64,000 nt of DNA from Patescibacteria group bacterium (GCA_018830295.1 JAHJSM010000001.1:1980-65979), one strand, 5' to 3'. Counted from the stretch's first letter, positions 15,916-33,406 are shown. Numbers and translations are program-made. The notes: generated from the sequence alone by a model not told the origin.

Positions 15916-16146
15916 ATGTGTTTAGCTATTCCAAGCAAGGTTGTTAAAATTGAAGGAAAATGGGCGAATGTCCAAGCGGGCGACCATCAACATCGGGTTG
16001 ATTTGAGTTTGCTTAAAAATGTAAAAGTCGGCGATTATATTTTCATCCACGACGAACTGGCAATTAACAAAATTCCCAAGACCGAAGCGAAGAAAATCCT
16101 GAAAATGATAAAAGACCATACTCATACCTGCGACCATCATCATTAA
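15916..16146 (+). CDS. hypC: Hydrogenase maturation chaperone HypC/HupF family, with a His-rich C-terminal tail
   Basis: Begins MCLAIPSKVVKI, the canonical HypC N-terminus, and ends ...DHTHTCDHHH. The tracked ORF starts 18 nt earlier at a non-conserved Met. Confidence 0.8.
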   Translation: MCLAIPSKVVKIEGKWANVQAGDHQHRVDLSLLKNVKVGDYIFIHDELAINKIPKTEAKKILKMIKDHTHTCDHHH

Positions 16147-17348
16147 TGCGCTGAACAACTAATACAGGGATCGTACGCCCTGACTAACATTGTCAACAAT
16201 TTCTCCATCTCTTCTCGCGATTTATTTTTCGTTTGTCCCAAAAGCGCCTTGGCGCTTTTTTCAATTGATGTCAAATTCTGAACCGTCGGCGTAATAATGT
16301 TGGCGTAAATAATATCGTTATCCTGACTCAAATGAACCTCATGATAAAGCCCGCCTCGCGGCGCCTCCGTAGAACCAATCCCCTTTAATGACGGATTGGA
16401 TGATTGTTTAATCGCTTCAGCGTTAATTTTCATTTCAAGCAATTTTTCAACAATTTCTATCGCTTTTTGGTGGTAATAAAGGGTCTCAATCGCTTGGGCG
16501 ATATTATTATGAAAAGGATTGGCAAAATCTATTTTTTCGCCCCTTTTAATTTTTTCGTTAACCGCCAAGCGCGCCAAAGAACCGACTAGGGTTTCTTCGC
16601 CTTTGTATTTGCTGAATTTAGCGGTTGAATATTCTCTGACTTCTTCTTCTATGTTTTTTTTGTAATCCGTAATGAGCGACTTGTCTTTCTTCTCTATATC
16701 TGTTGAAGAAACTGCAATAATATATTCCCCTTCTTGAGCGGCCAATTTCAAATCCACTTTTAATTCGGGATACTCAATCCCTTCAAAAATCTGAATTGTT
16801 TTTCGCGCCGCGTCTTCGGTCTCTTTTAATTTTTTGAGAAGAACTTTCAGAGCGGATTTGGTCGGGACTTTATGAAAACCGCCAATTGTGGTCGTAGTCG
16901 GATGAACAATTCGCCCGCCGACAATTTGAACAATTTTATCGGAAACCTCTTTCAGCGATAAAGCGTCCTTAAAAGCGGCTGGATTTTTTGGAGCCAATTC
17001 AGTCGCTCGGTCAATGCCGATATAATCAGGCAAAACCAAAAAGAAAAGATGAAGTACATGACTCTGAATCATCTGTCCGCATTGCATTAAATCGCGCAAA
17101 AGAACGGTCGTTTTGCTCGGCTTAATTCCCAAAGCGTTTTCAATCGCGTTCAAAGAAGCCAAATTATGAGCGGTCGGACAAACGCCGCAAATCCGCGGAG
17201 TAATCCACGCCATTTCTTCGGCTGTTCTGCCAACCAAGATTCCCTCAAAAAGCCGCTCTCCCTCAAAAATATTGAGTTTGACCTCGCCCGCGTCCCAATC
17301 AATATTCAAATTCCCATGCCCCTCAATTTTCGCGATAAAATTTTGCAT
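16143..17348 (-). CDS. [NiFe] hydrogenase large (alpha) subunit, group 3 (sulfhydrogenase-like)
   Basis: N-terminal RICGVCPTAH and C-terminal DPCISCSAH Ni-Fe ligand motifs. Confidence 0.9.
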   Translation of the reverse strand: MQNFIAKIEGHGNLNIDWDAGEVKLNIFEGERLFEGILVGRTAEEMAWITPRICGVCPTAHNLASLNAIENALGIKPSKTTVLLRDLMQCGQMIQSHVLHLFFLVLPDYIGIDRATELAPKNPAAFKDALSLKEVSDKIVQIVGGRIVHPTTTTIGGFHKVPTKSALKVLLKKLKETEDAARKTIQIFEGIEYPELKVDLKLAAQEGEYIIAVSSTDIEKKDKSLITDYKKNIEEEVREYSTAKFSKYKGEETLVGSLARLAVNEKIKRGEKIDFANPFHNNIAQAIETLYYHQKAIEIVEKLLEMKINAEAIKQSSNPSLKGIGSTEAPRGGLYHEVHLSQDNDIIYANIITPTVQNLTSIEKSAKALLGQTKNKSREEMEKLLTMLVRAYDPCISCSAH

Positions 17349-17441
17349 TTTTAAAAATAAGTATTCTGAAATTTATGAGCGTGTTGGGAGCCCTTTGGGC
17401 TAAAACGCGAAAAAATTTAGAATACGAAGTTTTTGTTTGTT

Positions 17442-18188
17442 TTATTCCTGATCTACTTTATTTAAGAACATACTAAAATATCTCTCAATTTCTTTTTTGT
17501 CCGTGATATTATTTAAAATTTTTAATAAAGCGTCAATATTCGCGTCCTCGCGTAAGCCAAAGCAACCATAACAGGGCGAACCGCCGTTGACGCAAACAGC
17601 CCCGCATCCGCCTTGGGTAATCGGTCCTAAACAAGGTTTCTCGTCTATAAGACGGCAAGGATTGCCCGCCTGCTTACATTCAAAACAAACCGAATAGCCG
17701 CGATAAGACGGCTTTTTCCCGCTTAATAATTCTTCCACTGTTCTGACTAATTCGCTTTCTTCAATCGGACAGCCGTGAATTAAAAAATCAACATGGATAT
17801 AGGCGCTTAATGGCAAGGCGTCAATTCCTCTCGGCTTGTATTTTTCTCCGTAAATTTTCTTGCACCATTTCTCCCTCTCGCTCTTTTCCATAATCGCCGG
17901 AATACCGCCCAGGGTGGCGCAACTTCCCAACCCAATCAAAAACTTTGATTTCTCGCGCAATGATTTAATTAAATCAATCTCTTCTTGCGTAATCGGCGCT
18001 CCTTCAATGAGCGTCACATCAAATGGCCCGTCTTCTTTCCGCTCCTGCCCCAAACGCCAGTCAACAATATCAATTCTTTTTTCCAAAACCAAAAGTTTCT
18101 CCCTTAAAGAGACGATTTTCACCTCACACCCCTCGCAATCAGTCAGGTCGTAAATAGCAACTCTTGGATTTGAATTTTTTTTAGTCAT
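17442..18188 (-). CDS. [NiFe] hydrogenase small (delta) subunit. The likely start is M47 (MTKKN...); the tracked extension overlaps the gamma-subunit gene
   Basis: DCEGCE and GSCATLGG motifs, with C-terminal Cys clusters. Confidence 0.85.
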   Translation of the reverse strand: MTKKNSNPRVAIYDLTDCEGCEVKIVSLREKLLVLEKRIDIVDWRLGQERKEDGPFDVTLIEGAPITQEEIDLIKSLREKSKFLIGLGSCATLGGIPAIMEKSEREKWCKKIYGEKYKPRGIDALPLSAYIHVDFLIHGCPIEESELVRTVEELLSGKKPSYRGYSVCFECKQAGNPCRLIDEKPCLGPITQGGCGAVCVNGGSPCYGCFGLREDANIDALLKILNNITDKKEIERYFSMFLNKVDQE

Positions 18189-19014
18189 GATTTTTATCAA
18201 TCTCGTCAAAATTAAAAACTGGACCGTCTTGGCAGACATATTTGCTCCCAGTCGCGCAGTGCTGGCACTTGCCCAACCCGCACTGCATCTTTCTTTCCAC
18301 ATTAACAAAAATTCTTCTATCGGCAATTCCCAATGGCCTCAATATTTTTTCAAGCGCCTCCATCATGGGCCCGGGGCCGCACATCGCCGCGACCGCATCA
18401 ACCGCGTTTATCTTTATATCATCAATTAATTCCGAAACCATTCCGACATATCCCTTCCAATTTTTATCCGGCTTATCAACCGTCAACAAAACCTTAATAT
18501 CTTTTTCCCATTTCTTAATCGCGTCCATCATTAATAAGTCCTTGGGCGTTCGCGCTCCGTAAATTAAATAGACATTCCCAAAATCTCCCCTGTTTTTAAT
18601 AATATACTCAATCAAAGCGGCAATGGGAGGAATGCCACATCCGCCCGTAACCATGACGACATCCTTGCCCGACATAAAATCAACGGGAAATCCATTTCCA
18701 TAAGGACCTCGCAAAAACGCTTCATCGCCTTCTTTTAATTGATGCAACTTCTCCGTCAAAACACCGGCCTTTCTAACAACCAAATCCAGATACCTTTTTT
18801 CATAAGGTGAGGAAGCCGCCCCAAAAGGCGCTTCGCCCCAGCCAAAAAGCCCAAACAAAAGAAATTGCCCCGGATTAAAAACCAGACCATTTTCATCCGC
18901 CTTAAACACACTCTTGCCTGGCTTCGGCGAGGCAAGGCGAAAACGGCTCACATTAGAAGAAAGTTTTTCTATCTTAATAATTTTAACTTTTTCTGGTTCG
19001 TAAATATTTTTCAT
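18181..19014 (-). CDS. Hydrogenase gamma subunit (FAD/NAD(P)-binding oxidoreductase with a [2Fe-2S] cluster)
   Basis: Flavin/NAD-binding fold, with CGLGKCQHC...C at the C-terminus. Confidence 0.85.
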   Translation of the reverse strand: MKNIYEPEKVKIIKIEKLSSNVSRFRLASPKPGKSVFKADENGLVFNPGQFLLFGLFGWGEAPFGAASSPYEKRYLDLVVRKAGVLTEKLHQLKEGDEAFLRGPYGNGFPVDFMSGKDVVMVTGGCGIPPIAALIEYIIKNRGDFGNVYLIYGARTPKDLLMMDAIKKWEKDIKVLLTVDKPDKNWKGYVGMVSELIDDIKINAVDAVAAMCGPGPMMEALEKILRPLGIADRRIFVNVERKMQCGLGKCQHCATGSKYVCQDGPVFNFDEIDKNHD

Positions 19015-19912
19015 AATCCTCCACTATCTCCATTAAAACGCCTGCGATTCCGATGCCGGCGGGACAGTTGTTTTTGCAATTTCCGCAGGCGACACATTGC
19101 GATTTTCCATATTCCTTGTAGGCGCGGACGAATTTGTGATAAAACCAATTGTAATACCGCTCTTTAACCGTCGGATGAAATTTATGCCCTCCGGCGATTT
19201 TTGAAAAATTAGGCAGAGTACAAGCGTCCCACTGGCGACAACGAGAACAACTCTCGCCGTCTAAATTAACTCTGTCCTCAATAGAAAAACAATGACATAA
19301 GGGACAAACATAAGTGCAAATTCCGCAACCCAAACATTTTTTCGCCAATTCGTCCCAAATTTTATGATTCGCCGACCAGGCGACCGCTTCCGCCAGCAAC
19401 TCCGAATCAAGAAGCATCTCTTTCATTGGATTTGAATCGGTTGAATATTTCTTAATAACTGGCTTGGCTATTTTTTTAATCAATTTACTTTTAATCGCCT
19501 TCTTTCCTTTTTCTGTTAAAACCAAAACCTGATATTGTTTAGAATTTATTTTTTCTAAAATAATATCCCCGCCCATTGGGACAATAACTGTATTATCAGT
19601 CAAACCGACTAAAACCGATTTTTCTCTTCTTCGCCAATAATAAAAATCTTTTCGCGGCTTCTCCATGATTTCGTCCAACTGCGTCATCGCTTCCAAATGC
19701 GCCATATTTAAACCAAAAAGCAAAACTCGCCCCTCATAATCGGGAACGCTTAACTTTTGGCTTTTCAAGTCAAAGTTAAATGTTTCTTCCTTAGGCGGAA
19801 AAAAATATTGCTTCGGAGGCAAGACGCTTTTCCGAACATCAAAAACCGCGAAGCCCTTTTTTAACTCCTTCAGCCAGTTTTTTATTTCTTTTTTTTCTAT
19901 TACTAAAGGCAT
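18983..19912 (-). CDS. Hydrogenase beta subunit (multi-cluster Fe-S protein)
   Basis: Several CxxCxxC...CP clusters (CLGCGICTYVCP, CVACGNCKNNCP). Confidence 0.85.
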   Translation of the reverse strand: MPLVIEKKEIKNWLKELKKGFAVFDVRKSVLPPKQYFFPPKEETFNFDLKSQKLSVPDYEGRVLLFGLNMAHLEAMTQLDEIMEKPRKDFYYWRRREKSVLVGLTDNTVIVPMGGDIILEKINSKQYQVLVLTEKGKKAIKSKLIKKIAKPVIKKYSTDSNPMKEMLLDSELLAEAVAWSANHKIWDELAKKCLGCGICTYVCPLCHCFSIEDRVNLDGESCSRCRQWDACTLPNFSKIAGGHKFHPTVKERYYNWFYHKFVRAYKEYGKSQCVACGNCKNNCPAGIGIAGVLMEIVEDYEKYLRTRKS

Positions 19913-20421: not shown

Positions 20422-21063
20422 CTACTTCGCAAGCGCTTTTTCAATCGCGTCTCTAAAAACGCTATACGGTTGATTACCGACAATTTGCTCGCCATTAACA
20501 AAGAAATTAGGCGTTCCGCTCACGCCATCTTCCTGCGCTTGTTCAAACCATTTTTCCACGCTCGTTTTATATTTCTCCGCGTCAAAACACAAATTAAATT
20601 CTTTCTGGTTTAATCCCAAATCAGCCGCTATTATTTTGATATCCTCCGCCGCCTTAAGTTCTGCCGCTTTTTCAAAAAGCTTCTCGTTAAATTCCGCGAA
20701 TTTGCCCTGGTCTTGCGCGCACAAAATGGCCATTCCTAATTCAAGCGGGGAAAGCAAACGGGAAATAAATTTAACCTTTCCTGTTTTAATATATTCATCC
20801 ATAATCAAGGGCAGGGTATCCCTGTGAAAATTAGCGCAATGCCCGCAAAAATGACTTGAATAATCTATGAGCGTTACTGGCGCGTCTGGGTTGCCTAAAA
20901 AAAACTCTTCGCCTAAAACAGCGTCTGTCTGCTTCTCGCCGCTTCCCAAAACAGAAGCCGCCTGCTTTGCCACATCCAACCCGTAATTCCCCGCGTACCA
21001 AACAACACCCGCCAAAAACGCGATTGCCACCACTCCGAAAATAATTGTTTTATTGTTTTGCAT
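20422..21063 (-). CDS. DsbA-family thiol:disulfide oxidoreductase (membrane-anchored)
   Basis: N-terminal TM helix and a CGHC active site. Confidence 0.8.
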   Translation of the reverse strand: MQNNKTIIFGVVAIAFLAGVVWYAGNYGLDVAKQAASVLGSGEKQTDAVLGEEFFLGNPDAPVTLIDYSSHFCGHCANFHRDTLPLIMDEYIKTGKVKFISRLLSPLELGMAILCAQDQGKFAEFNEKLFEKAAELKAAEDIKIIAADLGLNQKEFNLCFDAEKYKTSVEKWFEQAQEDGVSGTPNFFVNGEQIVGNQPYSVFRDAIEKALAK

Positions 21064-21171: not shown

Positions 21172-21555
21172 TTATTTAACGAAATCTTTTTTTAATTCCT
21201 TGGAAACGCACGGACTGCTTCTTATCAAGGCCTTCAATTCTTTAATGTCTTTGTCCGATACGGATATTCCAATAGGTTCAATTCCTGTCGCTTTAATAAG
21301 GTCATTTCCTGTCATATGAAATGACGCAATTCTTTTTTTAAATTCTTTCGTGTCTAAAGTTACAAAAGCAAATATTGTTCTACTCTCAAGGTCCCTTCCG
21401 CCATTAGATATTCTGCGATTATAAAGAGATGATATTTTTTCACTATCCTTTTTGTTTAAAATCCAAGCCGCGTATATTGTATCAGGGGTAATCTTTAAAA
21501 ATATGTATTCTTTGCCATTGTATCTAAAGACATCGCCAAAAGTTATAGTTATCAT
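21172..21555 (-). CDS. Hypothetical 127-aa protein, translationally coupled to the Panacea-domain gene; candidate toxin partner
   Basis: Its start codon lies 1 nt after the stop of the 21557-22099 gene. No recognisable family. Confidence 0.55.
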   Translation of the reverse strand: MITITFGDVFRYNGKEYIFLKITPDTIYAAWILNKKDSEKISSLYNRRISNGGRDLESRTIFAFVTLDTKEFKKRIASFHMTGNDLIKATGIEPIGISVSDKDIKELKALIRSSPCVSKELKKDFVK

Positions 21556-21556
21556 C

Positions 21557-22099
21557 TTATTTGATTAAATCCATTAGCAATTTTATTTCTTCCTTAGTAA
21601 CCTTGCAATCAGCATCATCAGCAGCGAGTATATATGGAATTTTGTCTAAAAGTTCCGTGCTATTCCATGGAGATTCTTTATGCGATTCATCCTCTATTTT
21701 TCTTGTGTTAACATTTCCAAATCTAATACATACTTTTTGAAGTATATCTAATTCGTTTTCAGAAAAATATTTTTCATCATCTTTGCTAAATTTTCTTAGC
21801 GGCAAAATTCTATGTATTTTTTGTCCTTCTAATGTTTCTATTTTTATCGTATCTGACAAAATTGCGTCATCCATATCGTCATCAACATTATCAACTAAAT
21901 TTTTTATGTTTGATGGTATTGGCCCGCGTTCTAAATGAACATAATCGTCATAAGTTACCGGCGATCCATACTGTTTTACATGCATAAAATCCAAAAAGTA
22001 GAAAAGTTTCATCAACTTAACTTTGCCCAAAAATCTAGGATTAGTATGCGCGCAAAAATACAAAAGAATAGCTTTTAATTTTGATATAGATATACGCAT
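21557..22099 (-). CDS. Panacea (DUF4065, SocA-like) antitoxin-domain protein
   Basis: KLMKLFYFLDFMHVKQYGSPVTYDDYVHLERGPIPS matches the Panacea/DUF4065 core (KLqKLlYfad...GrPit...Y.a...GPV). Confidence 0.7.
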   Translation of the reverse strand: MRISISKLKAILLYFCAHTNPRFLGKVKLMKLFYFLDFMHVKQYGSPVTYDDYVHLERGPIPSNIKNLVDNVDDDMDDAILSDTIKIETLEGQKIHRILPLRKFSKDDEKYFSENELDILQKVCIRFGNVNTRKIEDESHKESPWNSTELLDKIPYILAADDADCKVTKEEIKLLMDLIK

Positions 22100-22294: not shown

Positions 22295-22323
22295 AAAGTG
22301 TTCAACCCTGAAGGTTGAACACT
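22295..22323 (-). terminator. Terminator hairpin GTGTTCAACC-CTGA-AGGTTGAACAC with a minus-strand T-run; a second copy lies at 30540-30566
   Basis: Perfect 10-bp stem. It lies just downstream of the 22337-23143 gene. Confidence 0.6.
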
Positions 22324-22336
22324 TTTTACTCTTCTC

Positions 22337-23143
22337 TTATTGTATTTTCCGCTTTCTCTTCCTAATCACAATCAAAACGCACAAAACTAATAAAACAATT
22401 CCTAAAATAATCAGCCATTCGCCTGAACCCAATCCCGCAATGCCGGCCAAAAGACCATTCTGATTATTTTCTTCCTCTTGGTCTAAAACTATTACTTGTT
22501 CATCGTCCTGCTTCTCGCTAACCTCATCTTTTGTTCCCAAACCCTCTCCTTCGTCTTTCCCCTCATCTTCTTTCGCGTCTTCTGAAAAAACTGGCGTTTC
22601 CGCTTTTGGCGTCTTTACCGATGGCGCAACTGGCGCGGCTGGAATTGTTGGAACTGGCGCTGGCGCCGCAATATTCACAGCCGTTTGAACTATTGAACCG
22701 CTTAAAATGTCTTGATTTTCCGCGTTAAGAACCATTGAATTACTTCCTAATCCAATCACTCCGCTACCAGATTTTTTGGCTGTAAACGAAACTGTCCCAA
22801 AAGCAACCGCCGAAGACAGCCCGCCCGGGTAGCCAGCCGTTTTAATAAGAATGCCGTTGGTATTATCAATTAAATCGTATCCCGACGCAGAAAGAGCCAT
22901 CCAGTTACTGCCAAAATTAAACGACTTTACTTCTAATAAATCAGCGGGATACTCAAGTTCTGCTTTCGTTGTATAACTTTTAACCCCTTGAGGATTGATT
23001 GACACAACCAAATCAAAATTCTCTCCTTGAACAACATTGACATTAACTGGCGAAAATGAAATAGTCGCCGCCGCAAAAACAGAACTCGCTAAAACAATTC
23101 CTCCTAAAACAGTTAGTATAGTTATTAATTTAGTTTTATTCAT
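22337..23143 (-). CDS. Cell-surface protein with a cohesin-like N-terminal domain, a Pro/Ala linker, an acidic region and a C-terminal TM anchor plus basic tail
   Basis: Signal peptide. GENFDLVVSINPQGVKSYTTKAELEYPADLLEV resembles the cohesin core. C-terminal LIILGIVLLVLCVLIVIRKRKRK. Confidence 0.6.
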   Translation of the reverse strand: MNKTKLITILTVLGGIVLASSVFAAATISFSPVNVNVVQGENFDLVVSINPQGVKSYTTKAELEYPADLLEVKSFNFGSNWMALSASGYDLIDNTNGILIKTAGYPGGLSSAVAFGTVSFTAKKSGSGVIGLGSNSMVLNAENQDILSGSIVQTAVNIAAPAPVPTIPAAPVAPSVKTPKAETPVFSEDAKEDEGKDEGEGLGTKDEVSEKQDDEQVIVLDQEEENNQNGLLAGIAGLGSGEWLIILGIVLLVLCVLIVIRKRKRKIQ

Positions 23144-23157
23144 AATTTTTTGTCAAC

Positions 23158-23781
23158 CTATCCCGTCCAATAAGTCATTAATAAATTAAAGTCAAAAATA
23201 TCAACTGTTCCATTATTATCAAAGTCAGCCACATTACCACTCCCCGTCTTTCCCCAATTAATTACTAATGAGTTAAAGTCCAAAATATCAATTTTGTCAT
23301 CTCCATTAGTATCTACTACTTGAGCCGCCGCGCTAAGCGGACTTACTGGAGAAGGAGTTGACGAACCGCCGCTGCTGCTACCGCCAGAAGACACAGGAGG
23401 CGCCGGGGGTGGAGAAACTGGACTAATAACAGATAAATCAAGATAAACAATTGGATTCGTAGCAACATTAAGAGATTCGCATTGATTAGCATCATCAGCA
23501 ATCCCAATAACTTTGAATTTTATCATTTTGCCTTCATTAACGCTACCATCAGGGACATCAATAGAATATCTACCCTGAATTGTTACTGTTGTATTAGCAA
23601 CTTCTTTATCTTCTATTTCCGCTGTGATTATAGCGCCAACCGGCGCTAAACTACCATCAACTTCAACACTACCATAAACCAAAAGAGGTATTGATGGAGG
23701 AGAAGATTGGGCTAACGCCATCACAGGTATAATCAAAGCAGAAATTGTTAAGATAGTTAATAATTGTAATTTTGTTTTCAT
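23158..23781 (-). CDS. Secreted protein with a C-terminal dockerin-like tandem Ca-binding repeat
   Basis: Signal peptide. DTNGDDKIDILDFNSLVINWG ... DFDNNGTVDIFDFNLLMTYW is a dockerin type I-like duplicated EF-hand-like segment. Confidence 0.65.
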   Translation of the reverse strand: MKTKLQLLTILTISALIIPVMALAQSSPPSIPLLVYGSVEVDGSLAPVGAIITAEIEDKEVANTTVTIQGRYSIDVPDGSVNEGKMIKFKVIGIADDANQCESLNVATNPIVYLDLSVISPVSPPPAPPVSSGGSSSGGSSTPSPVSPLSAAAQVVDTNGDDKIDILDFNSLVINWGKTGSGNVADFDNNGTVDIFDFNLLMTYWTG

Positions 23782-23823
23782 AATTATTTTCTTAATGTTA
23801 AATACACCAAGTATTTAAGCATT

Positions 23824-26800
23824 TTATTTTTCGTTAAAAGTTACAATATTTCCTGCTTGATTCATCCACAACCAATATCCTTCTCCTGAATTCATATAGT
23901 CATCAGTTCTATTTACATTATTCTCATCTGATAGTATATAACTTCCTGTTAAACTTTGAAGATAAGTTGAGCTTAACATGCGAGCTGAAGTCGATTTCAA
24001 TCCAATAAGATTCCATCCTTGTACCACTTCATAGGTAGGCGATGGATTAGAAAATTCTGGCATCTCTGTCCCTGTTACAGTCAAAACAGCAGGGTTGGTC
24101 ATGTTTACCCAATAACCTTTTCCGTCTTCCATTGTTGTTAATGTTTTTACTTGACCAGGAACATAGTTTAACCATTCACCTGAATTATAATATTTTACTA
24201 ATATAATCTTATCGTTTATACCAGTAAGCACTGTGGCTATGTCAGTATTGCTAAATATCACTGGCAATGAAATTAAGTTCCAACCAGTGTTTAATTGAAT
24301 ATCGCAAGTCCATGTTCCACCGCCATTATCAGTACAAATCGGAGTTGGTTCAACCACCGCTTCTGTAATACTAATACTTCTAGCACTTGAGCCTTCCTTG
24401 CCAACTTCATCAGTAACAATAATTCTTATTGCTACATTCTCCCCAATAGCTTCTTCTGGCACAGTCCATTGGTAAAATGGTTGTGGATTATTATCGCTTT
24501 CTATAATCGTTGTCCAATTTGTTCCGCCATCCTTGGAATAATCTAATTTTGTTTTCAAATCTCCCATTGCAGTAATATTATCCGAAGCGTCCCAAGTAAT
24601 ATTATGGACTGAACCTGCTTGCCAATTCTCGCCTCCGTTAGGATTAATTAATTCAACGGTTGGAGAAGTGCTATCAACGCTTATTCCAAAAGCATCCACA
24701 TTTTGAGATATAATATTGTTTCCCGCTAAATCAGTAACTGTTATTTTTATATAACATTTAGAACTATTAACATTGGGAACAAGCCATGAATATTCACCAT
24801 CATTTGCTGTATTTATCACAATATCGTTCCAACTGTATTTATTATCATCAGAATATTTTAGTTTAATAGGCGCATTACTAAAATTATCATCTATGGCATC
24901 CCATTTTATAAGATATTGAGAACCGCCTTGTAGTGTTGAAGGGAAAACAAGAAGCGCGACTGTCGGCGTGTTGGCATCAATAGTTTTAGCAACATCACTT
25001 CCATCAACTGCAATTGAAACATTGCCTGCTGGGTCAGTTGCTTGCGCTCCTGTTAATTGTAAGGTAGTAGTTTGATCACTTTGCCCCTCTTCTACTGTAT
25101 AAGTTGCGGTATAAATATCTCCGCCGCTAACTGCAGTCCAAGTTAAATTTCCGCCGTTATAAGTGGCAGGGGTAATAGTTAAACCAGTTTCAGTAGTAGC
25201 GACATCAACTGTAAAAGTGACAGTATCTCCGATTTTTAACCAGCCTGCGCCAGTAGCGTCTGAAGTAACTGAACTGATTACTGGGGTATTAGCGTCAATT
25301 GCTAAAGTGTTGGCAGTTACGGTCGTATAGGCGATATTTTCATTACCTGCTGTGTCTTTTAGAATTACACTCGCTGTGATTGCGCCAGAAGCTACATCAA
25401 GATTTCCTTCTACCACAAGATAAGTTGCCGTATATGTATTATCGTTATTATCAACTAACGGGGCAGTAACATCTACGCTATTTACAGTGATAACACTGGC
25501 AGTATAACCAACCGCATCGGCAGTAATAGTTAAAATGACTGTATCGCCTACTTTAGCGGTTCCCGAATTTGGACTAACTTCAATTTTACTGATAGTCGGT
25601 GCGACTGTATCTACCGTCCAAGTATAAGTTGTCGCGCTTCCTTCTGCCTGCCAATTACCTGCTTGATCTCTTCCAATTACAGAAATTATATGAGAATCCT
25701 CGCTTAATCCGGTCTCACTTATTGCGGTAGCGAACGGTGTTTCTGCTCCATAACCTCTATCGTCTAAATCATATTTATAATAAACAACTTGATCACCGCT
25801 TACACTTAAAGTAATTTCATCACTGCTAATTGGACTAACTACATCTGGTAATATTGCAATTGGCGCAGTTTCGTCAATCAGATCGCAACTTTCATTAGTA
25901 CACCAAGGTCTGTAATTAAAATTACCACTTAAACTACCGATGCCGATTCCGTTTGGATTATCCGCATGAATTGGTCCTGAGGCGCTTCCCCACCAATTTT
26001 CCGCAAAAGCTTGACTAATTGACCCATAATTAATTACTGGGGAATTAAATTTATTTCTTTGTACTAAATAATTACTAGCATAATCAGCAATTCCTATATC
26101 TTCCGCATTGTCATGAAAATAATTTAACTTTACAGTCGCGTAGTTGATAGCGCCTATGCCAGCCGTATTATTATAGAATTCATTATTCTCTATATTAACA
26201 ATCCCGCTTCCGCTATTACCTAAATAAACCCCGGAAGTTAAATCGTGTATTGTATTATTTGTTATATTAACTCCATATACACCGGGTCTATCAAATAATA
26301 CACCTCTTCCACCAACGCTTGCTCCTTGCCCTACAAGAATATTATTAGATATTACAACACTAGTTACGCCAACTGGCAAATCTATTAAAACGCCGCCTGC
26401 GGATATTGTAAATTCCGTTACAGATACATCGTTGGCTGTAATTTCTAAATTACCATTAATAGTAGTGATGTTTTTTCCAGCGCCAACTAGATTTAACGCT
26501 TTATTAATTGTTAAATTTTCAGCATAAGTCCCAGCCGAGACATTAATTGTATCTCCCTCTGTCGCCTTGTTAATCGCTTCTTGAATGTTTATAAAATCAA
26601 CATCAGTTGTCCCAAAAGTAACATCAACAATCAATATTTTATTATAATTATAAACAAAAGAAACTGAATCTTTACTAACAGTATTCCCAGCAGAATCAGT
26701 AGCCGAAAGAACTAATGCATTTCTTCCATCATTTAAGTTAGCATTAGGAATCATTGCACCTAAACAACTAACATCAATTAGTGTTCCGCCATTTATAGTG

Positions 26801-29800
26801 TAGGAACAAGCAACTGAATTAGCATCGGTCGCTGTAAATGTTAGTGGTATATCAGCGATGTAAACAGTGTCTGCCACAGGGGAAATAAAGCTACTAATAA
26901 CTGGATTCGTTTTATCCCAAACCAAAGTCATTGTATCAGAAGAACTTTTTCCTGCATTATCAACAACTGTTAAACGGATTGTATAAGTATCGTCTGGGTT
27001 TGTTCCGTTTGCTTCAATTGTTGTATCTTCTGTGCTTGGTGTTCCAAAAGTAATTGTTCCAGCTCCACTTGTGGTTACATCTGTCCATAAATAACTTGCT
27101 ACTCCAGAAACACTATCATCAACTGTTGCATCTTGAGTAAATAGAGCGTTAACAATTTTATTTGTTCCAGCCTCTACATTAGGATCAGTTAAATCAACTT
27201 TAAATGTTTGATTTGCTATTTCTTCGTCATTCCCTGCAACATCTACTGAGTAATAATACAAAGTATCAGTGCCTTCTGAAGCAGTTAATATTCCTGTATA
27301 TTCTGCATAAGTTCCAGATGTCCCCCATTTATAATAAATTTTATCACAACCGCTTGTATCATCAGCGCAAGTCAATGTTATTGTTGGTTGCGTCACATAC
27401 CAGTTGCTCGTTCCATTTGGACTTACAGGACTTGTAATAAGAGTTGTTGCCGGAACAACTGTGTCCTTGATAATTCCACCCTCGCTGTCAGCTCCTATAT
27501 TTCCAGATGTATCAGCATCTTTGAAATATAAAGTAAATGAAGCGCCTTCTACCACTCCGCTAAATTCAGCGATAGCAGACATTTTTGTGACCCCGCTTGC
27601 GCAAACTGTCCAATTAGTGTCATCAACAGAACATTGCGAATTAGTTGAATCAGTTGCAAAAGTTATTACAGTATCACTATTTACATAAGCGCCAGTCAAC
27701 GGAGCAGTTATATTTACTACTGGAGCAATCATATCTTTAGTTGCGATACTGATTCCGGCTGAACTAACATTTCCCGCCGCATCAGTTAAAGTCGCGGAAG
27801 CTGTTAAATTTCCATCAGCCAAAGCTGAAACATCTATACTGGTAATATTAATATTCTCGCTTCCATCAACACTACTTACTCCCGTTATTTCTAAGGCTTC
27901 TTTATCTTTTACTGAATAACTTACAACAGCATTTGCTTCGCCAGTACCAGTAATAGTCATTGTTGAATTAACAATATTAATATCTGTTGCTAATATAGTC
28001 GGAGCGCCCGGCGTATTCGCGTCAATAGTTTTTACAACATCAATTCCATTTATTGAACCGCCGATATTTCCAACCAAATCAGTTAATGTAACGCCTGTTA
28101 ATTGCAAAGGTGAAGTTTGGTCCAATTGATCTTCCTCAACCGTATAAGTCGCCGTATAAGTTGTGCCATCAACAGTTAACCAAATCAAAGTTCCGCCATT
28201 ATAAACAGTTGGGCTAATAACCAAACCTGTTTCTGGAATAGTAGGGGTAACTGTAAAAATAATAGTATTCCCTACTTTTAATATTCCTGCTGTTGTTGCA
28301 TTAGAAATTACCGATGTTATAGCGGGAGCAAATGTATCAATATCATAACTAGCAGAACTTGTAGGTCCAACTGGAGCATTTCCGGCTACATCAGTCCAGT
28401 TAGTGCCAACGGTGATAACATTTTCATTATCATCAATATCTATTGCAGGAGTAAGGGTAGCTGTATAGATTTTTGCATCTCCATTGTCAATAGTAAAATT
28501 AGATAATGTCCCGTTTTCAATAACCGTCACATCATCGACAGTAAATCCAGTTGGTACTTCTGAAAATGCAAAGGTTACTGCGGCGGTTTCTCCGACTTTT
28601 AGAGCTGTGTCATTAAGAGTAATTGTAACTGTTGGTTCTAATGTATCAACATCAAATATTCCTGTGCTATCAGCATCCATCACATTCCCAGGTGTAGCTA
28701 AATCTACCGCGTCAGACACAATAATTATTGCCGTTGCTTCTTCGTTCGCATCTGAGAGAGTGAATATTTCTGTCCAAGTATTTCCAGACCAAGCGCCATC
28801 ACTTTGAGTTATTATAACGCCTATTATTCCCGTAAAGCTAAAAGTCGGGGCTGTAGAATTCATCGCCTCGCTAAATACAACAGTTATCGTAACATCTCCC
28901 ACTTTTGCCAAACTTGGGTTTGCTGTCACGCTAACAATAGTTGGCTTTGCTCCATCACTTACATCTTGATTTTCTACTTGAAGCAAGGCATTCTTTGAAT
29001 TATCCTCAAATGCGCCAACTGCAATTTCTAAATCTTCAGAATCGTCTGTAATCGCTGATGTTCCTAAATCTGAACCAAAAGTCAATACCACTACATCATC
29101 TTTGAATTCATTAATAAAAAACCCTGTCGGATTAATCCCTTTTAAAGTTATATTTTCAAGAGGATCTATGTAACCCCCAATGTCGTCTTCGCTAAATGTT
29201 AATTCAACGGTGGTTGAATTTGTTAAAACAGCTGTTTCCAATATTGGAGCAATACCATCAAAAGTAATAGGGCTTGCCACTGGAGCAGAAAGTCCAGCTA
29301 AATCTTTAACATCCCCAACGTAACCTACATTAGGAGTTTCTCCTGTCCCGAAATTAGTTCCCAACGTTAAAGTGATAACCCCATTTAATTCACTAGTGCC
29401 TGTTATTGTATAGCCCTCTACACTAAAATCAGCTATTGCATCTGTAGTTCCATCCAAATCCTCAGAAAATGCCAATTCAATAGTATTTATCGTTTTAGTT
29501 CTGGTTGACCAAAGTACAGGGTTAGCCTCATCTGTAGAAGTTTGAGAAAAACTTGCCAATGGATTACCAACCATATCTGCTCCACTTCCAGCAGTATAAA
29601 CAACAACTTTCGCTTCCGTTCCAGTTGCTTTATTTTCCACAACAATATCAAAAGTATTATCGTTTACTATGCCTCCAGTATCTATGGTAATTACAGGAGC
29701 TGAACCACATATAAAATCGCCTGCAGAAAAAGTTGAGTCATCTACTGCTTCACTAAATACAATAGTAGCCATTTCCACATTTCCATCACCATTGGTATCT

Positions 29801-30351
29801 TTAGTGGTGATTGATAAAATTGTCGGCGCTGTCACATCAACAGTTGTTTTTGTATCAGTGTTAAATGTATAACCCTCATTTACATCTCTTGTCGCAACAC
29901 CCCATGTATATTCCGTGTCTACTGTAGGCGTTGGAGATGTAGCATTAAAAGCAACATTAACGCTATTGTCAGCAGTTAAAATACTATCGCTAAATACATC
30001 TGTCATGCAAACAGCTTGTAAACTAGAAGATTCTGAATCATTTGTCCACCCCGCAGGGCAAGAAATAGTGCTTGTGTCTATTAAAAAACCAGATCCACTT
30101 TCAACGCTTATAGTGATTTTATACACAGAATCCGCTCCATTATTCGTCACTGTAAATCCATAAGCATCAGTAGAACCGCCAGCAACAAATTCCGGCGCAG
30201 TAGTCGCTGTCGCCGTATGTTCCGCCAAAACAAAATTATAAACAAAAAAACCGCCCATGATTAAGACGGCAAACAAAATTAAAAAAGGCGACCACCTAAG
30301 CCCCCCCCCAGAAACTTTTTCCCTCCAACGAGAAATATGAGAATTATTCAT
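23824..30351 (-). CDS. Giant (2175 aa) surface adhesin-like protein with Ig-like (Big) repeats and a right-handed beta-helix segment
   Basis: N-terminal TM/signal region. A ~105-aa repeat unit ending in TIDANTP occurs three times. The NxxNxI.NN repeats (NITNNTIHD...NIENNEFYNN) are typical of parallel beta-helix. Confidence 0.85.
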   Translation of the reverse strand: MNNSHISRWREKVSGGGLRWSPFLILFAVLIMGGFFVYNFVLAEHTATATTAPEFVAGGSTDAYGFTVTNNGADSVYKITISVESGSGFLIDTSTISCPAGWTNDSESSSLQAVCMTDVFSDSILTADNSVNVAFNATSPTPTVDTEYTWGVATRDVNEGYTFNTDTKTTVDVTAPTILSITTKDTNGDGNVEMATIVFSEAVDDSTFSAGDFICGSAPVITIDTGGIVNDNTFDIVVENKATGTEAKVVVYTAGSGADMVGNPLASFSQTSTDEANPVLWSTRTKTINTIELAFSEDLDGTTDAIADFSVEGYTITGTSELNGVITLTLGTNFGTGETPNVGYVGDVKDLAGLSAPVASPITFDGIAPILETAVLTNSTTVELTFSEDDIGGYIDPLENITLKGINPTGFFINEFKDDVVVLTFGSDLGTSAITDDSEDLEIAVGAFEDNSKNALLQVENQDVSDGAKPTIVSVTANPSLAKVGDVTITVVFSEAMNSTAPTFSFTGIIGVIITQSDGAWSGNTWTEIFTLSDANEEATAIIIVSDAVDLATPGNVMDADSTGIFDVDTLEPTVTITLNDTALKVGETAAVTFAFSEVPTGFTVDDVTVIENGTLSNFTIDNGDAKIYTATLTPAIDIDDNENVITVGTNWTDVAGNAPVGPTSSASYDIDTFAPAITSVISNATTAGILKVGNTIIFTVTPTIPETGLVISPTVYNGGTLIWLTVDGTTYTATYTVEEDQLDQTSPLQLTGVTLTDLVGNIGGSINGIDVVKTIDANTPGAPTILATDINIVNSTMTITGTGEANAVVSYSVKDKEALEITGVSSVDGSENINITSIDVSALADGNLTASATLTDAAGNVSSAGISIATKDMIAPVVNITAPLTGAYVNSDTVITFATDSTNSQCSVDDTNWTVCASGVTKMSAIAEFSGVVEGASFTLYFKDADTSGNIGADSEGGIIKDTVVPATTLITSPVSPNGTSNWYVTQPTITLTCADDTSGCDKIYYKWGTSGTYAEYTGILTASEGTDTLYYYSVDVAGNDEEIANQTFKVDLTDPNVEAGTNKIVNALFTQDATVDDSVSGVASYLWTDVTTSGAGTITFGTPSTEDTTIEANGTNPDDTYTIRLTVVDNAGKSSSDTMTLVWDKTNPVISSFISPVADTVYIADIPLTFTATDANSVACSYTINGGTLIDVSCLGAMIPNANLNDGRNALVLSATDSAGNTVSKDSVSFVYNYNKILIVDVTFGTTDVDFINIQEAINKATEGDTINVSAGTYAENLTINKALNLVGAGKNITTINGNLEITANDVSVTEFTISAGGVLIDLPVGVTSVVISNNILVGQGASVGGRGVLFDRPGVYGVNITNNTIHDLTSGVYLGNSGSGIVNIENNEFYNNTAGIGAINYATVKLNYFHDNAEDIGIADYASNYLVQRNKFNSPVINYGSISQAFAENWWGSASGPIHADNPNGIGIGSLSGNFNYRPWCTNESCDLIDETAPIAILPDVVSPISSDEITLSVSGDQVVYYKYDLDDRGYGAETPFATAISETGLSEDSHIISVIGRDQAGNWQAEGSATTYTWTVDTVAPTISKIEVSPNSGTAKVGDTVILTITADAVGYTASVITVNSVDVTAPLVDNNDNTYTATYLVVEGNLDVASGAITASVILKDTAGNENIAYTTVTANTLAIDANTPVISSVTSDATGAGWLKIGDTVTFTVDVATTETGLTITPATYNGGNLTWTAVSGGDIYTATYTVEEGQSDQTTTLQLTGAQATDPAGNVSIAVDGSDVAKTIDANTPTVALLVFPSTLQGGSQYLIKWDAIDDNFSNAPIKLKYSDDNKYSWNDIVINTANDGEYSWLVPNVNSSKCYIKITVTDLAGNNIISQNVDAFGISVDSTSPTVELINPNGGENWQAGSVHNITWDASDNITAMGDLKTKLDYSKDGGTNWTTIIESDNNPQPFYQWTVPEEAIGENVAIRIIVTDEVGKEGSSARSISITEAVVEPTPICTDNGGGTWTCDIQLNTGWNLISLPVIFSNTDIATVLTGINDKIILVKYYNSGEWLNYVPGQVKTLTTMEDGKGYWVNMTNPAVLTVTGTEMPEFSNPSPTYEVVQGWNLIGLKSTSARMLSSTYLQSLTGSYILSDENNVNRTDDYMNSGEGYWLWMNQAGNIVTFNEK

Positions 30352-30539
30352 GATGTCTTTTTTGCAAACGCCTGACCAAGTAGAAAATAATTTTTCACTC
30401 GCGCCGAAAACGATTACAAAATTTTATTTATTAAATTTTAATTTTTACAAAAAACCAAAAAGTAAAATTCTAACTTAATTACATCCTATATTTTCAATCC
30501 TAAAATGTCAAGTGTTTTGGGCGCGATTGCTTGCTGAAA

Positions 30540-30566
30540 AGTGTTCAACCCTGAAGGTTGAACACC
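30540..30566 (-). terminator. Second copy of the GTGTTCAACC...GGTTGAACAC hairpin (terminator candidate)
   Basis: Same stem as 22295-22323, downstream of the 30567-31781 gene. Confidence 0.5.
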
Positions 30567-31781
30567 TTATTTCTCCAACTGTCTAATATCAACAACTGGA
30601 ATGTTATTAATTTTTTCCTTAATCCTATTGATAGTGGCAATATAAAATTTTATTTTAGGATAGGTTTCAATAAATTTTTTATACTTATTCTTATTGAATT
30701 TCTCTGAATTTACTTTAACTTCGTAAGCTGTCTCTTCCTCAACCACAAAATCAACTTCGTGTTTCTGGATAGTTCGCCAAAATTTTATCTCTGAAAAATC
30801 ATACTTTTCCAACAACTCTCTATACAAAGCATTTTCTAAGAGCTGTCCTTTGTCTTCGCGCAAATCATAAGAATCTAAATTTTTTAATAAAAAATTTCTC
30901 AATCCCAAATCCAAAAAATAAACTTTTGGCATTTTAGTAATTTCCTTTCTTAAATTTCCGTAAAAAGGACTAACTAATCTGATATGAAATGACCTCTCCA
31001 TAATAGACAAATAGTCCTCTACCGTCGAACGGGATATTTTTAAGGTTGAGGCAAGTTCCGAACTATTAACCAAATTGCCAGTTTGAGAAGCCAAAATTCT
31101 CATTAAATTATAAAACACTTCTTCCTGTTTAATGTTGGCCTCAAAAATATCTTTTTTAATGTAAGAATGAACCAAGTCCCCTAAAACTTCTTTTTTCTGG
31201 GCTCTATCCGATAAAACAACTCTTGGATATCCGCCATAAGTTAAATACTCGCGGTAATATAAATCAACTTTCTCTTTTTCAGATAAACTAATTTTGTTAA
31301 AATTCTTTTTTGCCAAATCCTCTTTATTTTTAAATTTTAAAAACTCTCTAAAGGACAAAGGCAATAATCTAAAAATCTTTTTGCGGCCAACTAAAGAATC
31401 TTTAAATCTGCGGTCTATGTAAAAAGCAGATGAGCCAGTCGCGATAATTTTTATCTTTCCCTTATATTCATCATAAAAATATTTTAAGAAATTAGTCGGG
31501 TCATCAAGATATTGAACTTCATCAACTAAAACATAAGTTTTTTGTTTCAAATCAAAAGGAAAGATTTTAAAAAGATTTTTGGGCGTTTTTTTTAACAAAG
31601 AAAGATATTCATAATCCTCTAAGTTGAGAAAATGAACAGCATTGCCTTTTTCTTGAATAAAATCCTCTATTTGACGCAAAATAGTCGTCTTGCCAGATTG
31701 CCTCGGACCAATAATCAGCGCTATTTCGTTGTTGTCAATTTCTTTTTTAATTTTAATAGTCAAATCCCTTATAATACTCAT
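30567..31781 (-). CDS. AAA-family ATPase (AAA_14 plus DUF4143 architecture)
   Basis: Walker A GPRQSGKTT and Walker B LVDEVQ; 404 aa. Confidence 0.85.
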   Translation of the reverse strand: MSIIRDLTIKIKKEIDNNEIALIIGPRQSGKTTILRQIEDFIQEKGNAVHFLNLEDYEYLSLLKKTPKNLFKIFPFDLKQKTYVLVDEVQYLDDPTNFLKYFYDEYKGKIKIIATGSSAFYIDRRFKDSLVGRKKIFRLLPLSFREFLKFKNKEDLAKKNFNKISLSEKEKVDLYYREYLTYGGYPRVVLSDRAQKKEVLGDLVHSYIKKDIFEANIKQEEVFYNLMRILASQTGNLVNSSELASTLKISRSTVEDYLSIMERSFHIRLVSPFYGNLRKEITKMPKVYFLDLGLRNFLLKNLDSYDLREDKGQLLENALYRELLEKYDFSEIKFWRTIQKHEVDFVVEEETAYEVKVNSEKFNKNKYKKFIETYPKIKFYIATINRIKEKINNIPVVDIRQLEK

Positions 31782-31910
31782 AAAAAATACTTTAATTTAA
31801 TTATTAACCTCATATTATCAGATATTATGTTCTTGTCAAGAGCATAATATCCACAAATTTTTAGACGCTATTTAGGGATTGGTATAAATAATGCGCCTTG
31901 CGCGGTTTTC

Positions 31911-32741
31911 CTATTTCAAATCTTTTATTTTGTTTCTTAAAATATCTTTAATATTTTTGCCCAATTTTTTTACAAACGCTATGTCGCTAATAAAATTTTC
32001 TAAATCCAAGGTAATGCTTTTATAGTCAATTTTTTCCACGATTGCCAGAAGTTTCTTCTTTAAATCATCAATTGTCTCCACCTCTTCAATACAATCTAAA
32101 TTAGGACTTATTCCCTGCTCTAAATACCACATCAAATCAAAATAGTCGCGACCCTTAACGCTAATTAACTTTTTTCCTTTTTTATCTGTCTTTCCCCATT
32201 TTCTGCGCAAAACGGCCTTGATTTTGGTCGCCATTAATGTCGGCAAATCAAAAGTTTTTATTAAAATAGATTTATTGTTTTTAAACAACGGCTTAATTTC
32301 AGTTTTGTATTTACGGCAAAAATTAAAATTCTTGAATATTTCTATTTTTAAATGTAAAAAATCAGATTCAGCGCCGCTTGATAATCCAAAATCTTTTAGA
32401 ATCGGAAATTTTAAGTATATTCTAAACTTCTGCGGTTTAATTGAAACAGAAAAATCTGTTTTTTTACAGAAAAAGTTTTTTAAATCATCAGCCAATTCTT
32501 CTATTGATACTTTTTTTTCAATATCAACAAAGTCAAGATCCTCGGAGAGTCGTGGCAGAGAATAGCATTGGGAAAGGCAAGAACCGCCATAGAACACCAA
32601 TTTATTATATTTTTCATTAGAATATATGTAGTCAAGCGCGAGAACCTGAAAATATTCCTTTAATAAGTTTCTTTTATATAAGTTTGATTTTTCAAAATTT
32701 TTTTTGATTATATCTTTGATAATTGTTTCTGTTTCGTTCAT
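31911..32741 (-). CDS. Nucleotidyltransferase AbiEii/AbiGii toxin family (DUF1814)
   Basis: LVFYGGSCLSQCYSLPRLSEDLDF matches the AbiEii GG(T)..(R)(F)SED(I/L)D signature. Overlaps the upstream gene by 4 nt. Confidence 0.75.
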   Translation of the reverse strand: MNETETIIKDIIKKNFEKSNLYKRNLLKEYFQVLALDYIYSNEKYNKLVFYGGSCLSQCYSLPRLSEDLDFVDIEKKVSIEELADDLKNFFCKKTDFSVSIKPQKFRIYLKFPILKDFGLSSGAESDFLHLKIEIFKNFNFCRKYKTEIKPLFKNNKSILIKTFDLPTLMATKIKAVLRRKWGKTDKKGKKLISVKGRDYFDLMWYLEQGISPNLDCIEEVETIDDLKKKLLAIVEKIDYKSITLDLENFISDIAFVKKLGKNIKDILRNKIKDLK

Positions 32742-33406
32742 ATTCTTGATTTAAATAAATAATTAAATATGTCAGTCATTTTTTTACTGCTTTCTAATTT
32801 GACATATTTTTCCAATTCTTTAATATCTTTTTTTCTAAAATCGCCAAGATTAAGCCGCAGTTCTTTAACTGCCGTTTTATGTCGCAAAATATTTTTTCTT
32901 AAATACAAAAAATCAAATAATGCTTTCGCTAAACTGGCTTTTTTAATTAAGTACTCGCCTTTTCTATGAAGTTCAAAACCGATAAATAAATTTTCTTTAA
33001 TGTGATGATAATCAAAAAGTCCCAGTTTATTGGAAAACTTTTTTGTCTTTTTTTCGGTGATTAATGTGAAGCTGTTTGAGGTCTCGCTTAAAATATTATT
33101 TTTCCCAAGCGCGTATTCAAGGCTGATATAAGCGGGCTCATATAAAATATTAGCAATAAATTCCAAATATTCATTCATGCCATTGCTTTTTTCAATAAAT
33201 TCCAAATATTTTTTGGAAACATAAACTCCCTTTTTCAAAGAAATTACTTCGCCTTTTTTTGACAACCTGGACAATAATATTCTTAGATATTTTTTATTTT
33301 CTTCAATAACGGTTAAATTTTCAATACGAAAATAAGGCAAATTTTTTATCGCGCTTTTAATTTTTTCTGAACGAAAACCTTTGGATTTTTTATTTATTTT
33401 TACCAT
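32738..33406 (-). CDS. AbiEi-like antitoxin / transcriptional regulator partner
   Basis: The position and 4-nt overlap with AbiEii are typical of abiEi-abiEii operons; 222 aa with the N-terminal wHTH-like region of this class. Confidence 0.6.
   Translation of the reverse strand: MVKINKKSKGFRSEKIKSAIKNLPYFRIENLTVIEENKKYLRILLSRLSKKGEVISLKKGVYVSKKYLEFIEKSNGMNEYLEFIANILYEPAYISLEYALGKNNILSETSNSFTLITEKKTKKFSNKLGLFDYHHIKENLFIGFELHRKGEYLIKKASLAKALFDFLYLRKNILRHKTAVKELRLNLGDFRKKDIKELEKYVKLESSKKMTDIFNYLFKSRI

Follow-up and report, generated by a model that had tools for sequence, protein, structure and literature searches.

Patescibacteria, which also go by the name of candidate phyla radiation (CPR), make up a large and mostly uncultivated share of bacterial diversity, and many of them are attached to host cells through an apparatus that is largely obscure. 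Cohesin and dockerin modules reportedly occur outside cellulosomes in all three domains of life, and are said to take part in the toxin complexes of Clostridium perfringens. In the Sulfolobales, a large outer surface protein (SlaA) and a smaller stalk protein with a C-terminal transmembrane (TM) helix (SlaB) are encoded by adjacent genes. Here we describe a cassette of three consecutive minus-strand genes, running from position 30351 to 22337 in a 64-kb stretch of the genome of an ultra-small bacterium of the Patescibacteria (GCA_018830295.1, JAHJSM010000001.1:1980-65979; hereafter the window). It encodes, in order of transcription, a giant surface protein of 2175 amino acids (aa), a 207-aa secreted adaptor ending in a dockerin, and a 268-aa membrane anchor carrying a cohesin. 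Judged by sequence, such pairs of dockerin cargo and cohesin anchor are a dedicated and widely conserved anchoring couple in Patescibacteria, to which the giant would be tethered as cargo.

In Ruminococcus flavefaciens, the wall-anchored protein ScaE holds, with a single cohesin, the X-dockerins of two partners, the adaptor scaffoldin ScaB and CttA, a non-enzymatic adhesion protein (PMC3821032). The Patescibacteria system likewise puts one cohesin on a surface anchor and has dockerin-terminated partners. Unlike ScaE, which sortase attaches to peptidoglycan via an LPXTG motif, the Patescibacteria anchor ends in a TM helix and a basic tail and lacks LPXTG. The source is a metagenome-assembled genome of Patescibacteria, not a fibre degrader. 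Furthermore, the joint between cargo and adaptor is proposed to form between the C-terminal segment of the giant (CTD) and the N-terminal domain of the adaptor (NDOM), instead of through a second cohesin-dockerin pair. No family of glycoside hydrolases (GH), carbohydrate esterases (CE), polysaccharide lyases (PL) or carbohydrate-binding modules (CBM) scored above threshold in the three proteins, with SusG_CBM58 and Pectinesterase-like as the only related matches, both sub-threshold. Since there is a single cohesin and neither such enzymes or CBM nor a multi-cohesin scaffoldin, the cassette is not a cellulosome.

The anchors of Clostridium thermocellum (SdbA, OlpB and Orf2p), together with the X-module-dockerin of CipA, offer a second parallel, as they attach a large extracellular assembly to the envelope in several tiers of cohesin-dockerin contacts. 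An SLH-ended anchor like theirs closes one related chain of CTD and NDOM proteins (locus L066). The window anchor differs in its TM tail, which replaces SLH, and in serving a single adhesin-like giant rather than an array of enzymes. CipA X-module-dockerin chains (4fl4_C, 3kcp_A) are among the Foldseek matches to the adaptor model; the adaptor is not a rigid dyad of this kind, because a flexible Gly/Ser/Pro linker (predicted local confidence, pLDDT, <50) separates its beta-sandwich from the dockerin. The dockerin of C. perfringens GH84C (NagJ) and the GH33/GH84 cohesins also join secreted proteins outside cellulose degradation. Those pairs bring soluble glycoside hydrolases into toxin complexes, whereas the Patescibacteria cohesin is membrane-anchored and belongs to a fixed adjacent gene couple found across a bacterial radiation. 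The likeness to SlaA/SlaB, where the gene of a large surface protein also lies beside that of a smaller TM stalk, is an analogy only, with no relation of sequence or fold expected; in contrast to their two tiers, the cassette would build three, connected by cohesin-dockerin and CTD:NDOM contacts. In the literature on cohesins and dockerins in Patescibacteria or CPR, we found no description of this operon and no link to Paceibacteria or Nealsonbacteria. Only one passage found comes near the subject: it mentions that a cultivated Saccharibacterium has an essential protein with a dockerin domain (PMC10633639).

The cohesin anchor and its probable dockerin partner

The 268-aa protein comprises a signal peptide, a beta domain of ~135 residues, a spacer that is first Pro/Ala-rich and then Glu/Asp-rich, a TM helix, and an RKRKRK tail. 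Its homologues (n=410) belong to Patescibacteria wherever they are named, and many carry a precomputed match to the cohesin family PF00963. The match of the window protein itself spans profile positions 7-139 of 139 (E=1.3e-3, 19.4 bits vs a cutoff of 24.1), and 16/30 aligned homologues match at E<=0.01, the best at 1.3e-6. The AlphaFold2 (AF2) model of the anchor has pLDDT >90 over most of aa 30-160 and 85-87 in two ten-residue blocks. A full-length cohesin-family profile retrieved no solved cohesins from the PDB, and fold comparison was therefore used instead. The top 36 Foldseek matches of the model in the PDB were all cohesins, with E values of 3.9e-9 to 3e-5, probability 1.00, and template-modelling scores, TM(target), of 0.70-0.76 among the best. 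They cover types I, II and III and include the non-cellulosomal C. perfringens cohesins 2vo8/2jh2 and the ScaE-type 2zf9, indicating that the predicted domain is superposable on the nine-stranded beta-sandwich (jelly-roll) of solved cohesins. A match of the full-length profile to phage lambda gpV, Big_2-like and confined to the first strands, was rejected, and single-sequence phmmer searches of the 268-aa and 207-aa proteins against the PDB returned noise only.

The length and sequence of the spacer vary across the anchor family, and almost all complete members close with a TM helix followed by a tail of basic or polar residues. No LPXTG motif is present in the anchor; the LPXTG_anchor model TIGR01167 scored 15.4 against a cutoff of 15.9, through the TM helix and tail only. 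Neither a TLxTC sortase signature among the window open reading frames (ORFs) nor a match to a known NCBIfam sorting-signal family across the cohesin anchors was found. In many anchors, a semi-conserved motif, LLAAIGxxxx(L/F)GTG(N/D), adjoins the TM helix and basic tail on their outer side (columns ~265-300 of alignment A1) and is arranged like a sorting signal; the window version is LLAGIAGLGSG.

The adaptor ends in two tandem repeats, DTNGDDKIDILDFNSLVINW and DFDNNGTVDIFDFNLLMTYW. Each forms an F-hand, in which a calcium loop is followed by a helix (DTNGDDKIDILD-FNSLVINW and DFDNNGTVDIFD-FNLLMTYW), with D or N at loop positions 1, 3, 5, 9 and 12 in both copies and loop aspartates that are invariant across the family. 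A regular-expression scan found no other dockerin motifs in the six frames of the window. The dockerin family PF00404 matches the adaptor at E=1.1e-3 (19.6 bits vs a cutoff of 22.9; positions 3-55 of 57) and 25/29 of its homologues, at best with 6.2e-8. The adaptor has 57 homologues, again from Patescibacteria wherever named. Its AF2 model (mean pLDDT 87.8) consists of a beta-sandwich, the flexible linker and two short helices, and the dockerin helices (aa 166-174 and 195-205) exceed pLDDT 90. When a dockerin-only profile, restricted to the 64 residues at the C-terminus, was compared with the PDB, the dockerin 5lxv_B came first (3.1e-6), followed by the C. perfringens GH84C dockerin (2jnk_A/2ozn, 1.4e-5) and then by 5nrk_B and 4fl4_A, with calmodulins appearing from ~6e-3.

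The matches of the homologues, the AF2 model with its Foldseek comparison, and the ranking of the dockerin profile settle the two identities: by sequence and model, the 268-aa domain is a cohesin and the C-terminus of the adaptor is a dockerin. A preliminary description of the window had described the two proteins in these terms, down to the Pro/Ala-rich linker and membrane anchor of the first and the duplicated dockerin of the secreted second, and it read them correctly. The Pfam check that it proposed came out divided, as the homologues match PF00963 and PF00404 and the window proteins stay below both thresholds.

To establish how regularly the two modules occur together, hidden Markov models (HMMs) built for cohesin domain, dockerin and NDOM were run over all ORFs of 57 loci from a scan of one genome per species. 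These loci are labelled Nealson-, Yanofsky-, Vogel-, Wolfe-, Azam-, Jorgensen-, Campbell-, Brenner- and Berkelbacteria, Kazan and others. Together with the window and the neighbourhoods of homologues, they gave 56 cohesin ORFs preceded by 300 bp or more of sequence. At 52/56 of them, the ORF immediately upstream lies on the same strand and has a terminal dockerin, which stops 0-6 residues short of the C-terminus. The dockerin-bearing partners range from 131 to 1807 aa. Two further loci were scored as dockerin-cohesin fusions. One of these, L061 (8606-10576, Candidatus Brennerbacteria), is real: a single 656-aa ORF with two Fn3-like repeats, a Gly-rich linker, a degenerate dockerin of one and a half repeats, a cohesin and a TM tail. 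The other, an apparent NDOM-dockerin-cohesin fusion at L036, was discarded as artefactual, being produced by a stretch of masked N. The closed 647-kb genome CP179889.1 (Candidatus Nealsonbacteria) carries two paralogous dockerin-cohesin pairs ~34 kb apart (L011 and L012). Neither pair has a large gene upstream, and the N-domain of their dockerin proteins is Cys-rich and does not resemble NDOM; at ~85% identity, these are recent duplicates, and they are uninformative on pair-specific divergence. The fixed, adjacent and co-oriented position of the two genes, the terminal placement of the dockerin, and the membership of both modules in interacting families make it likely that cohesin and dockerin are cognate partners.

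The resemblance could also be superficial, with an Ig-like or cohesin-fold spacer and a generic EF-hand tail that do not bind each other. Both window proteins score under the Pfam gathering thresholds, the profile search of the PDB missed the cohesins, the 207-aa protein matches EF-hand families with similar scores, and many dockerin-like modules outside cellulosomes reportedly have no known partner. This explanation is nevertheless very improbable in view of the purely cohesin structural matches, the ranking of solved dockerins above calmodulins, and the conservation of both modules (27 columns are invariant among the aligned cohesin proteins, and 11/64 among the dockerins). The dockerin-then-cohesin adjacency, always with the dockerin at the extreme C-terminus and across deep lineages, and the natural fusion at L061 likewise speak against it.

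The giant protein and a candidate second connector

The giant was known from the preliminary description as an Ig-repeat and beta-helix protein, and its family matches agree: Big_12 (7.6e-29), Big_5/6/7/13, PKD and OmpL47-type barrel domains surround a right-handed beta-helix (Pfam, NCBIfam). The helix is matched by NosD_copper_fam (2.8e-11, aa 1256-1320) and, under the cutoff, by Pectinesterase-like (E=1.5e-4); no catalytic family scored above threshold in the giant. From its sequence, the N-terminus is either a cleaved signal peptide or a signal anchor. Pfam, the six-frame regular-expression scan and the family HMMs detected neither a dockerin nor a cohesin in the giant. Hence, of the surface assembly that had been imagined, the anchored cohesin with its dockerin protein is supported by fold, profile and adjacency in >50 genomes, and a direct cohesin or dockerin link of the giant is not.

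The giant nonetheless appears to belong to the system, as indicated by three lines of evidence. First, the triad of a giant, a dockerin protein of ~200-350 aa and a cohesin anchor recurs with unrelated flanks, for example in the closed Nealsonbacteria genome CP179890.1. Second, eight loci of relatives encode, just upstream of the cohesin gene, a large protein that is itself dockerin-terminated (1807 aa in L006). A large or CTD-bearing gene lies upstream of 25/34 small dockerin proteins vs 2/9 large ones (Fisher p=0.008). Third, the slot of the giant is filled in relatives by positional homologues of 900-2200 aa with conserved ends (N-terminal ~176 aa, C-terminal ~170 aa) and a mosaic, variable middle; the N-terminal ~176 aa are kept in the giants of five loci.

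The conserved C-terminal end is the CTD, an internally duplicated segment (GWNLISLP...GKGYWV / GWNLIGL...GEGYWLW). Pfam, NCBIfam and PDB searches gave no relative of it beyond a trivial Kelch-strand-like motif. A kinship with the cohesins was considered and dropped (hhalign vs the cohesin family, probability 0.2%). NDOM, its proposed counterpart on the adaptor, also lacks a Pfam match. It is modelled with pLDDT 92-97 over aa 31-120, and Foldseek relates it to transthyretin-like domains, namely in the beta-subunit of pyrogallol transhydroxylase (4v4c_B, E=5.8e-5), the C-domain of the PapC usher, the N-terminal extension of SusC and carboxypeptidase M, at low template-modelling scores of 0.2-0.5; it is a candidate for the seven-stranded prealbumin-like sandwich.

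The two domains keep close company. An iterative jackhmmer search of the locus ORFs placed CTD on the protein encoded upstream in 19/19 loci with upstream DNA and a dockerin protein of the NDOM type, at the C-terminus in all except L057. A word-indexed homologue search with CTD returned 21 short proteins only, and its true spread emerged when 1.84 billion representatives were searched exhaustively: 5503 proteins at E<=1e-3 and 1227 at E<=1e-10, from 155 to ~3400 aa long, with CTD almost always at the extreme C-terminus. We then examined loci selected by CTD alone, of which 80 came from scanning metagenomes with an alignment subset and three were obtained by look-up. The gene next downstream of the CTD gene encodes a protein that starts with NDOM after its signal peptide in 54/72 scorable cases, vs 12/131 (9%) for non-CTD ORFs at those loci (p=6e-22, computed without regard to relatedness). 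The full triad of CTD, NDOM-dockerin and cohesin is repeated in three of these loci.

The C-termini of the NDOM-first proteins are diverse. About 19 have a TM helix with a basic tail, ~20 have an 'LREFRD...WRN' tail, seven end in a dockerin and one (L066) ends in three SLH domains. The second kind is a conserved tail of ~70 residues, AEQIDVLREFRDVVLL...FVALYYRLSPPIADFIA...LVRELLVDPIVWIVEATGDIWRN, which was seen at twelve loci and may be another envelope-anchoring module. Several of the proteins that bear it carry Flg_new_2 (InlB B-repeat-like) domains. Other NDOM-first proteins end in a further CTD that is followed by another NDOM gene, forming daisy chains (L065:923-7650, L066:567-9133) of the order X-CTD, NDOM-Y-CTD, NDOM-Z-anchor; the last member in L066 is the protein with three SLH domains. 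Such an arrangement hints at chains of several subunits whose assembly follows the gene order. Two loci, moreover, have NDOM and CTD next to each other in one fused protein.

CTD thus sits on cargo and NDOM on anchors. Docking of one to the other is the most economical reading of this asymmetry, of the gene order and of the fusions. We tentatively propose that CTD:NDOM is a general second docking system, analogous in its role to dockerin-cohesin and widespread in uncultivated bacteria, an idea that we regard as possible and somewhat short of probable. Under it, cargo of any size may bear a C-terminal CTD, with the next gene supplying the NDOM-headed anchor, which may end in a TM tail, SLH, a dockerin or a chain-extending CTD.

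Based on these findings, we postulate a three-tier assembly, giant-CTD : NDOM-adaptor-dockerin : cohesin-TM, which on balance is probable. The C-terminal TM helix and basic tail of the exported 268-aa protein would fix it in the cytoplasmic membrane, with its cohesin held off the membrane by the ~70-residue disordered spacer. The calcium-binding dockerin of the adaptor would plug into this cohesin, and its NDOM would hold the CTD of the giant, whose variable Ig-like and beta-helix middle would project outward, most plausibly as an adhesin. In relatives where the dockerin is fused to the cargo, the adaptor step would be skipped. We infer the cohesin-dockerin contact from family membership and strict synteny, and the CTD:NDOM contact from gene order, domain fusions and the types of anchor found on NDOM proteins. 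A role as adhesin, possibly in host contact by an episymbiont, is plausible from architecture and variability. The giant's place in the assembly, which the preliminary description had suggested, is therefore supported by the dockerin-ended relatives, the constant company of CTD and NDOM and their gene order, by a route unlike the one imagined there.

Several observations weigh against this assembly. The giant has a hydrophobic N-terminal segment of its own which, if uncleaved, would make a C-terminal tether unneeded and would loop the protein. Eighteen of the 72 CTD genes have no NDOM gene directly downstream. In the cohesin-selected set, detection of NDOM and CTD may partly track phylogenetic closeness, and the p-values are optimistic since the loci are not independent. 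The same N-terminal segment could serve a two-component arrangement, in which the NDOM of the 207-aa protein is the working end (e.g., a glycan or ligand binder) and the giant is independent, self-anchored and merely part of the same operon. The lack of a dockerin or cohesin in the giant fits this arrangement, as do dockerin-cohesin pairs without a large upstream gene, of which at least five loci, the two of CP179889.1 among them, are examples. We consider it unlikely, given that CTD and NDOM go together at every suitable locus and follow each other far above background, that dockerin-terminated giants in relatives identify large proteins as cargo of this cohesin, and that NDOM proteins carry anchors, not obvious effector domains.

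The three-tier tether could also hold a different kind of cargo, either an S-layer-like canopy on a membrane stalk, as in SlaA/SlaB, or a beta-helix acting on polysaccharides, rather than a host adhesin. The triple SLH end of the L066 chain, typical of S-layer anchoring, the weak pectinesterase- and NosD-like matches of the beta-helix, and the resemblance of a large protein with a small downstream membrane-stalk gene to slaAB are in keeping with such a cargo. We judge it improbable, as no catalytic family exceeds its threshold and the combination of mosaic, variable middles with conserved ends is more typical of adhesins or variable surface antigens than of lattice S-layers.

Gene layout and genomic setting

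The NCBI annotation (PGAP) names the exact 268-aa protein 'cohesin domain-containing protein' and the other two 'hypothetical protein'; close relatives are labelled Candidatus Portnoybacteria. The coordinates of the cassette, its modules and its neighbours are given in Table 1.

Table 1 Features of the three-gene cassette and its flanks in the 64-kb window
Feature	Position	Strand	Basis or remark
Giant surface protein, 2175 aa, proposed cargo	23824..30351	-	ORF; Ig-like/beta-helix family matches
N-terminal segment, giant aa 1-44	30220..30351	-	Basic N-region and 22-residue hydrophobic stretch ending VLA|EH, read from sequence
Right-handed beta-helix, giant aa ~1251-1520	25792..26601	-	NosD_copper_fam, Pectinesterase-like
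CTD, giant aa 2006-2175	23827..24336	-	jackhmmer on locus ORFs, alignment
Secreted adaptor, 207 aa: signal peptide, NDOM, Gly/Ser/Pro linker, dockerin	23158..23781	-	ORF, AF2 model
NDOM, transthyretin/CarboxypepD_reg-like beta-sandwich, adaptor aa 28-120	23422..23700	-	AF2, Foldseek
Dockerin, adaptor aa 151-207	23161..23331	-	PF00404, loop residues, AF2, profile search
Two F-hand repeats of the dockerin	23254-23313 and 23167-23226	-	D/N loop residues
Cohesin anchor, 268 aa	22337..23143	-	ORF, homologues
Single cohesin module, anchor aa 25-160	22664..23071	-	PF00963, AF2, Foldseek
Disordered spacer, Pro/Ala-rich then Glu/Asp-rich, anchor aa 161-230	22454..22663	-	Sequence; AF2 pLDDT <50
LLAGIAGLGSG motif, TM helix, RKRKRKIQ tail, anchor aa 231-268	22340..22453	-	AF2 helix aa 242-266
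Promoter-like site TTGACA-17-TAGGAT, 5' of the giant gene	30483..30511	-	Consensus scan only; between upstream hairpin and giant ATG
25-nucleotide hairpin, copy 1	30541..30565	.	Directly past stop of upstream AAA_14/DUF4143 gene; T-run on minus strand
Identical 25-nucleotide hairpin, copy 2	22298..22322	.	14 nucleotides past cohesin-gene stop; then TTTTTT on minus strand
SocA/Panacea gene and 127-aa partner	SocA/Panacea 21557-22099; pair 21172-22099		Flank of cassette
AAA_14-DUF4143 ATPase	30567-31781		Opposite flank, upstream of giant
AbiEii and overlapping 222-aa ORF	AbiEii 31911-32741		Opposite flank

Only 42 nucleotides separate the gene of the giant from that of the adaptor, and 14 the latter from the cohesin gene. 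A palindromic hairpin, GTGTTCAACCCTGAAGGTTGAACAC, occurs exactly twice in the window, vs 0 copies expected by chance, and its two copies bracket the cassette. The short gaps, the bracketing hairpins with their T-runs and the promoter-like site make the three genes look like one transcription unit. Copy 1 looks like a terminator, copy 2 is likely the terminator of the operon, and both are probably shared terminators; the pair could also be the end marks of a relocated cassette.

The cassette is flanked by defence and toxin-antitoxin genes (21172-22099 and 30567-33406). These flanks, and the fact that flanking genes differ among relatives, suggest that it lies in a variable genomic island. Nearly all genes of the window are on the minus strand, the GC skew stays strongly negative throughout (cumulative -6.7; 1-64000), and no tRNA or Rfam family was found across the 64 kb. 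Elsewhere in the window, a group-3b-like cluster (16143-19912) encodes the large subunit of a NiFe-hydrogenase beside FAD/NAD-binding and 4Fe-4S subunits, and a DsbA-like thioredoxin lies at 20422-21063.

Implications for surface display in Patescibacteria

These findings extend cohesin-dockerin biology well beyond the degradation of plant fibre. Both module pairs, cohesin with dockerin and CTD with NDOM, consist of small parts that can be expressed separately, so that their binding can be tested without cultivation, and they could serve as orthogonal parts in protein-scaffold engineering. If the order of CTD and NDOM genes reflects binding, it would define a new class of connector present in thousands of proteins, and would provide a genomic rule for spotting surface cargo and its anchors in metagenomes.

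For the candidate phyla of the Parcubacteria group, the conserved pair of dockerin cargo and cohesin anchor offers a testable mechanism for the display of giant surface proteins. If the proposed assembly is true, CTD:NDOM connectors and a membrane anchor with one cohesin would together give Patescibacteria a modular display of giant, fast-evolving proteins for contact with their hosts.

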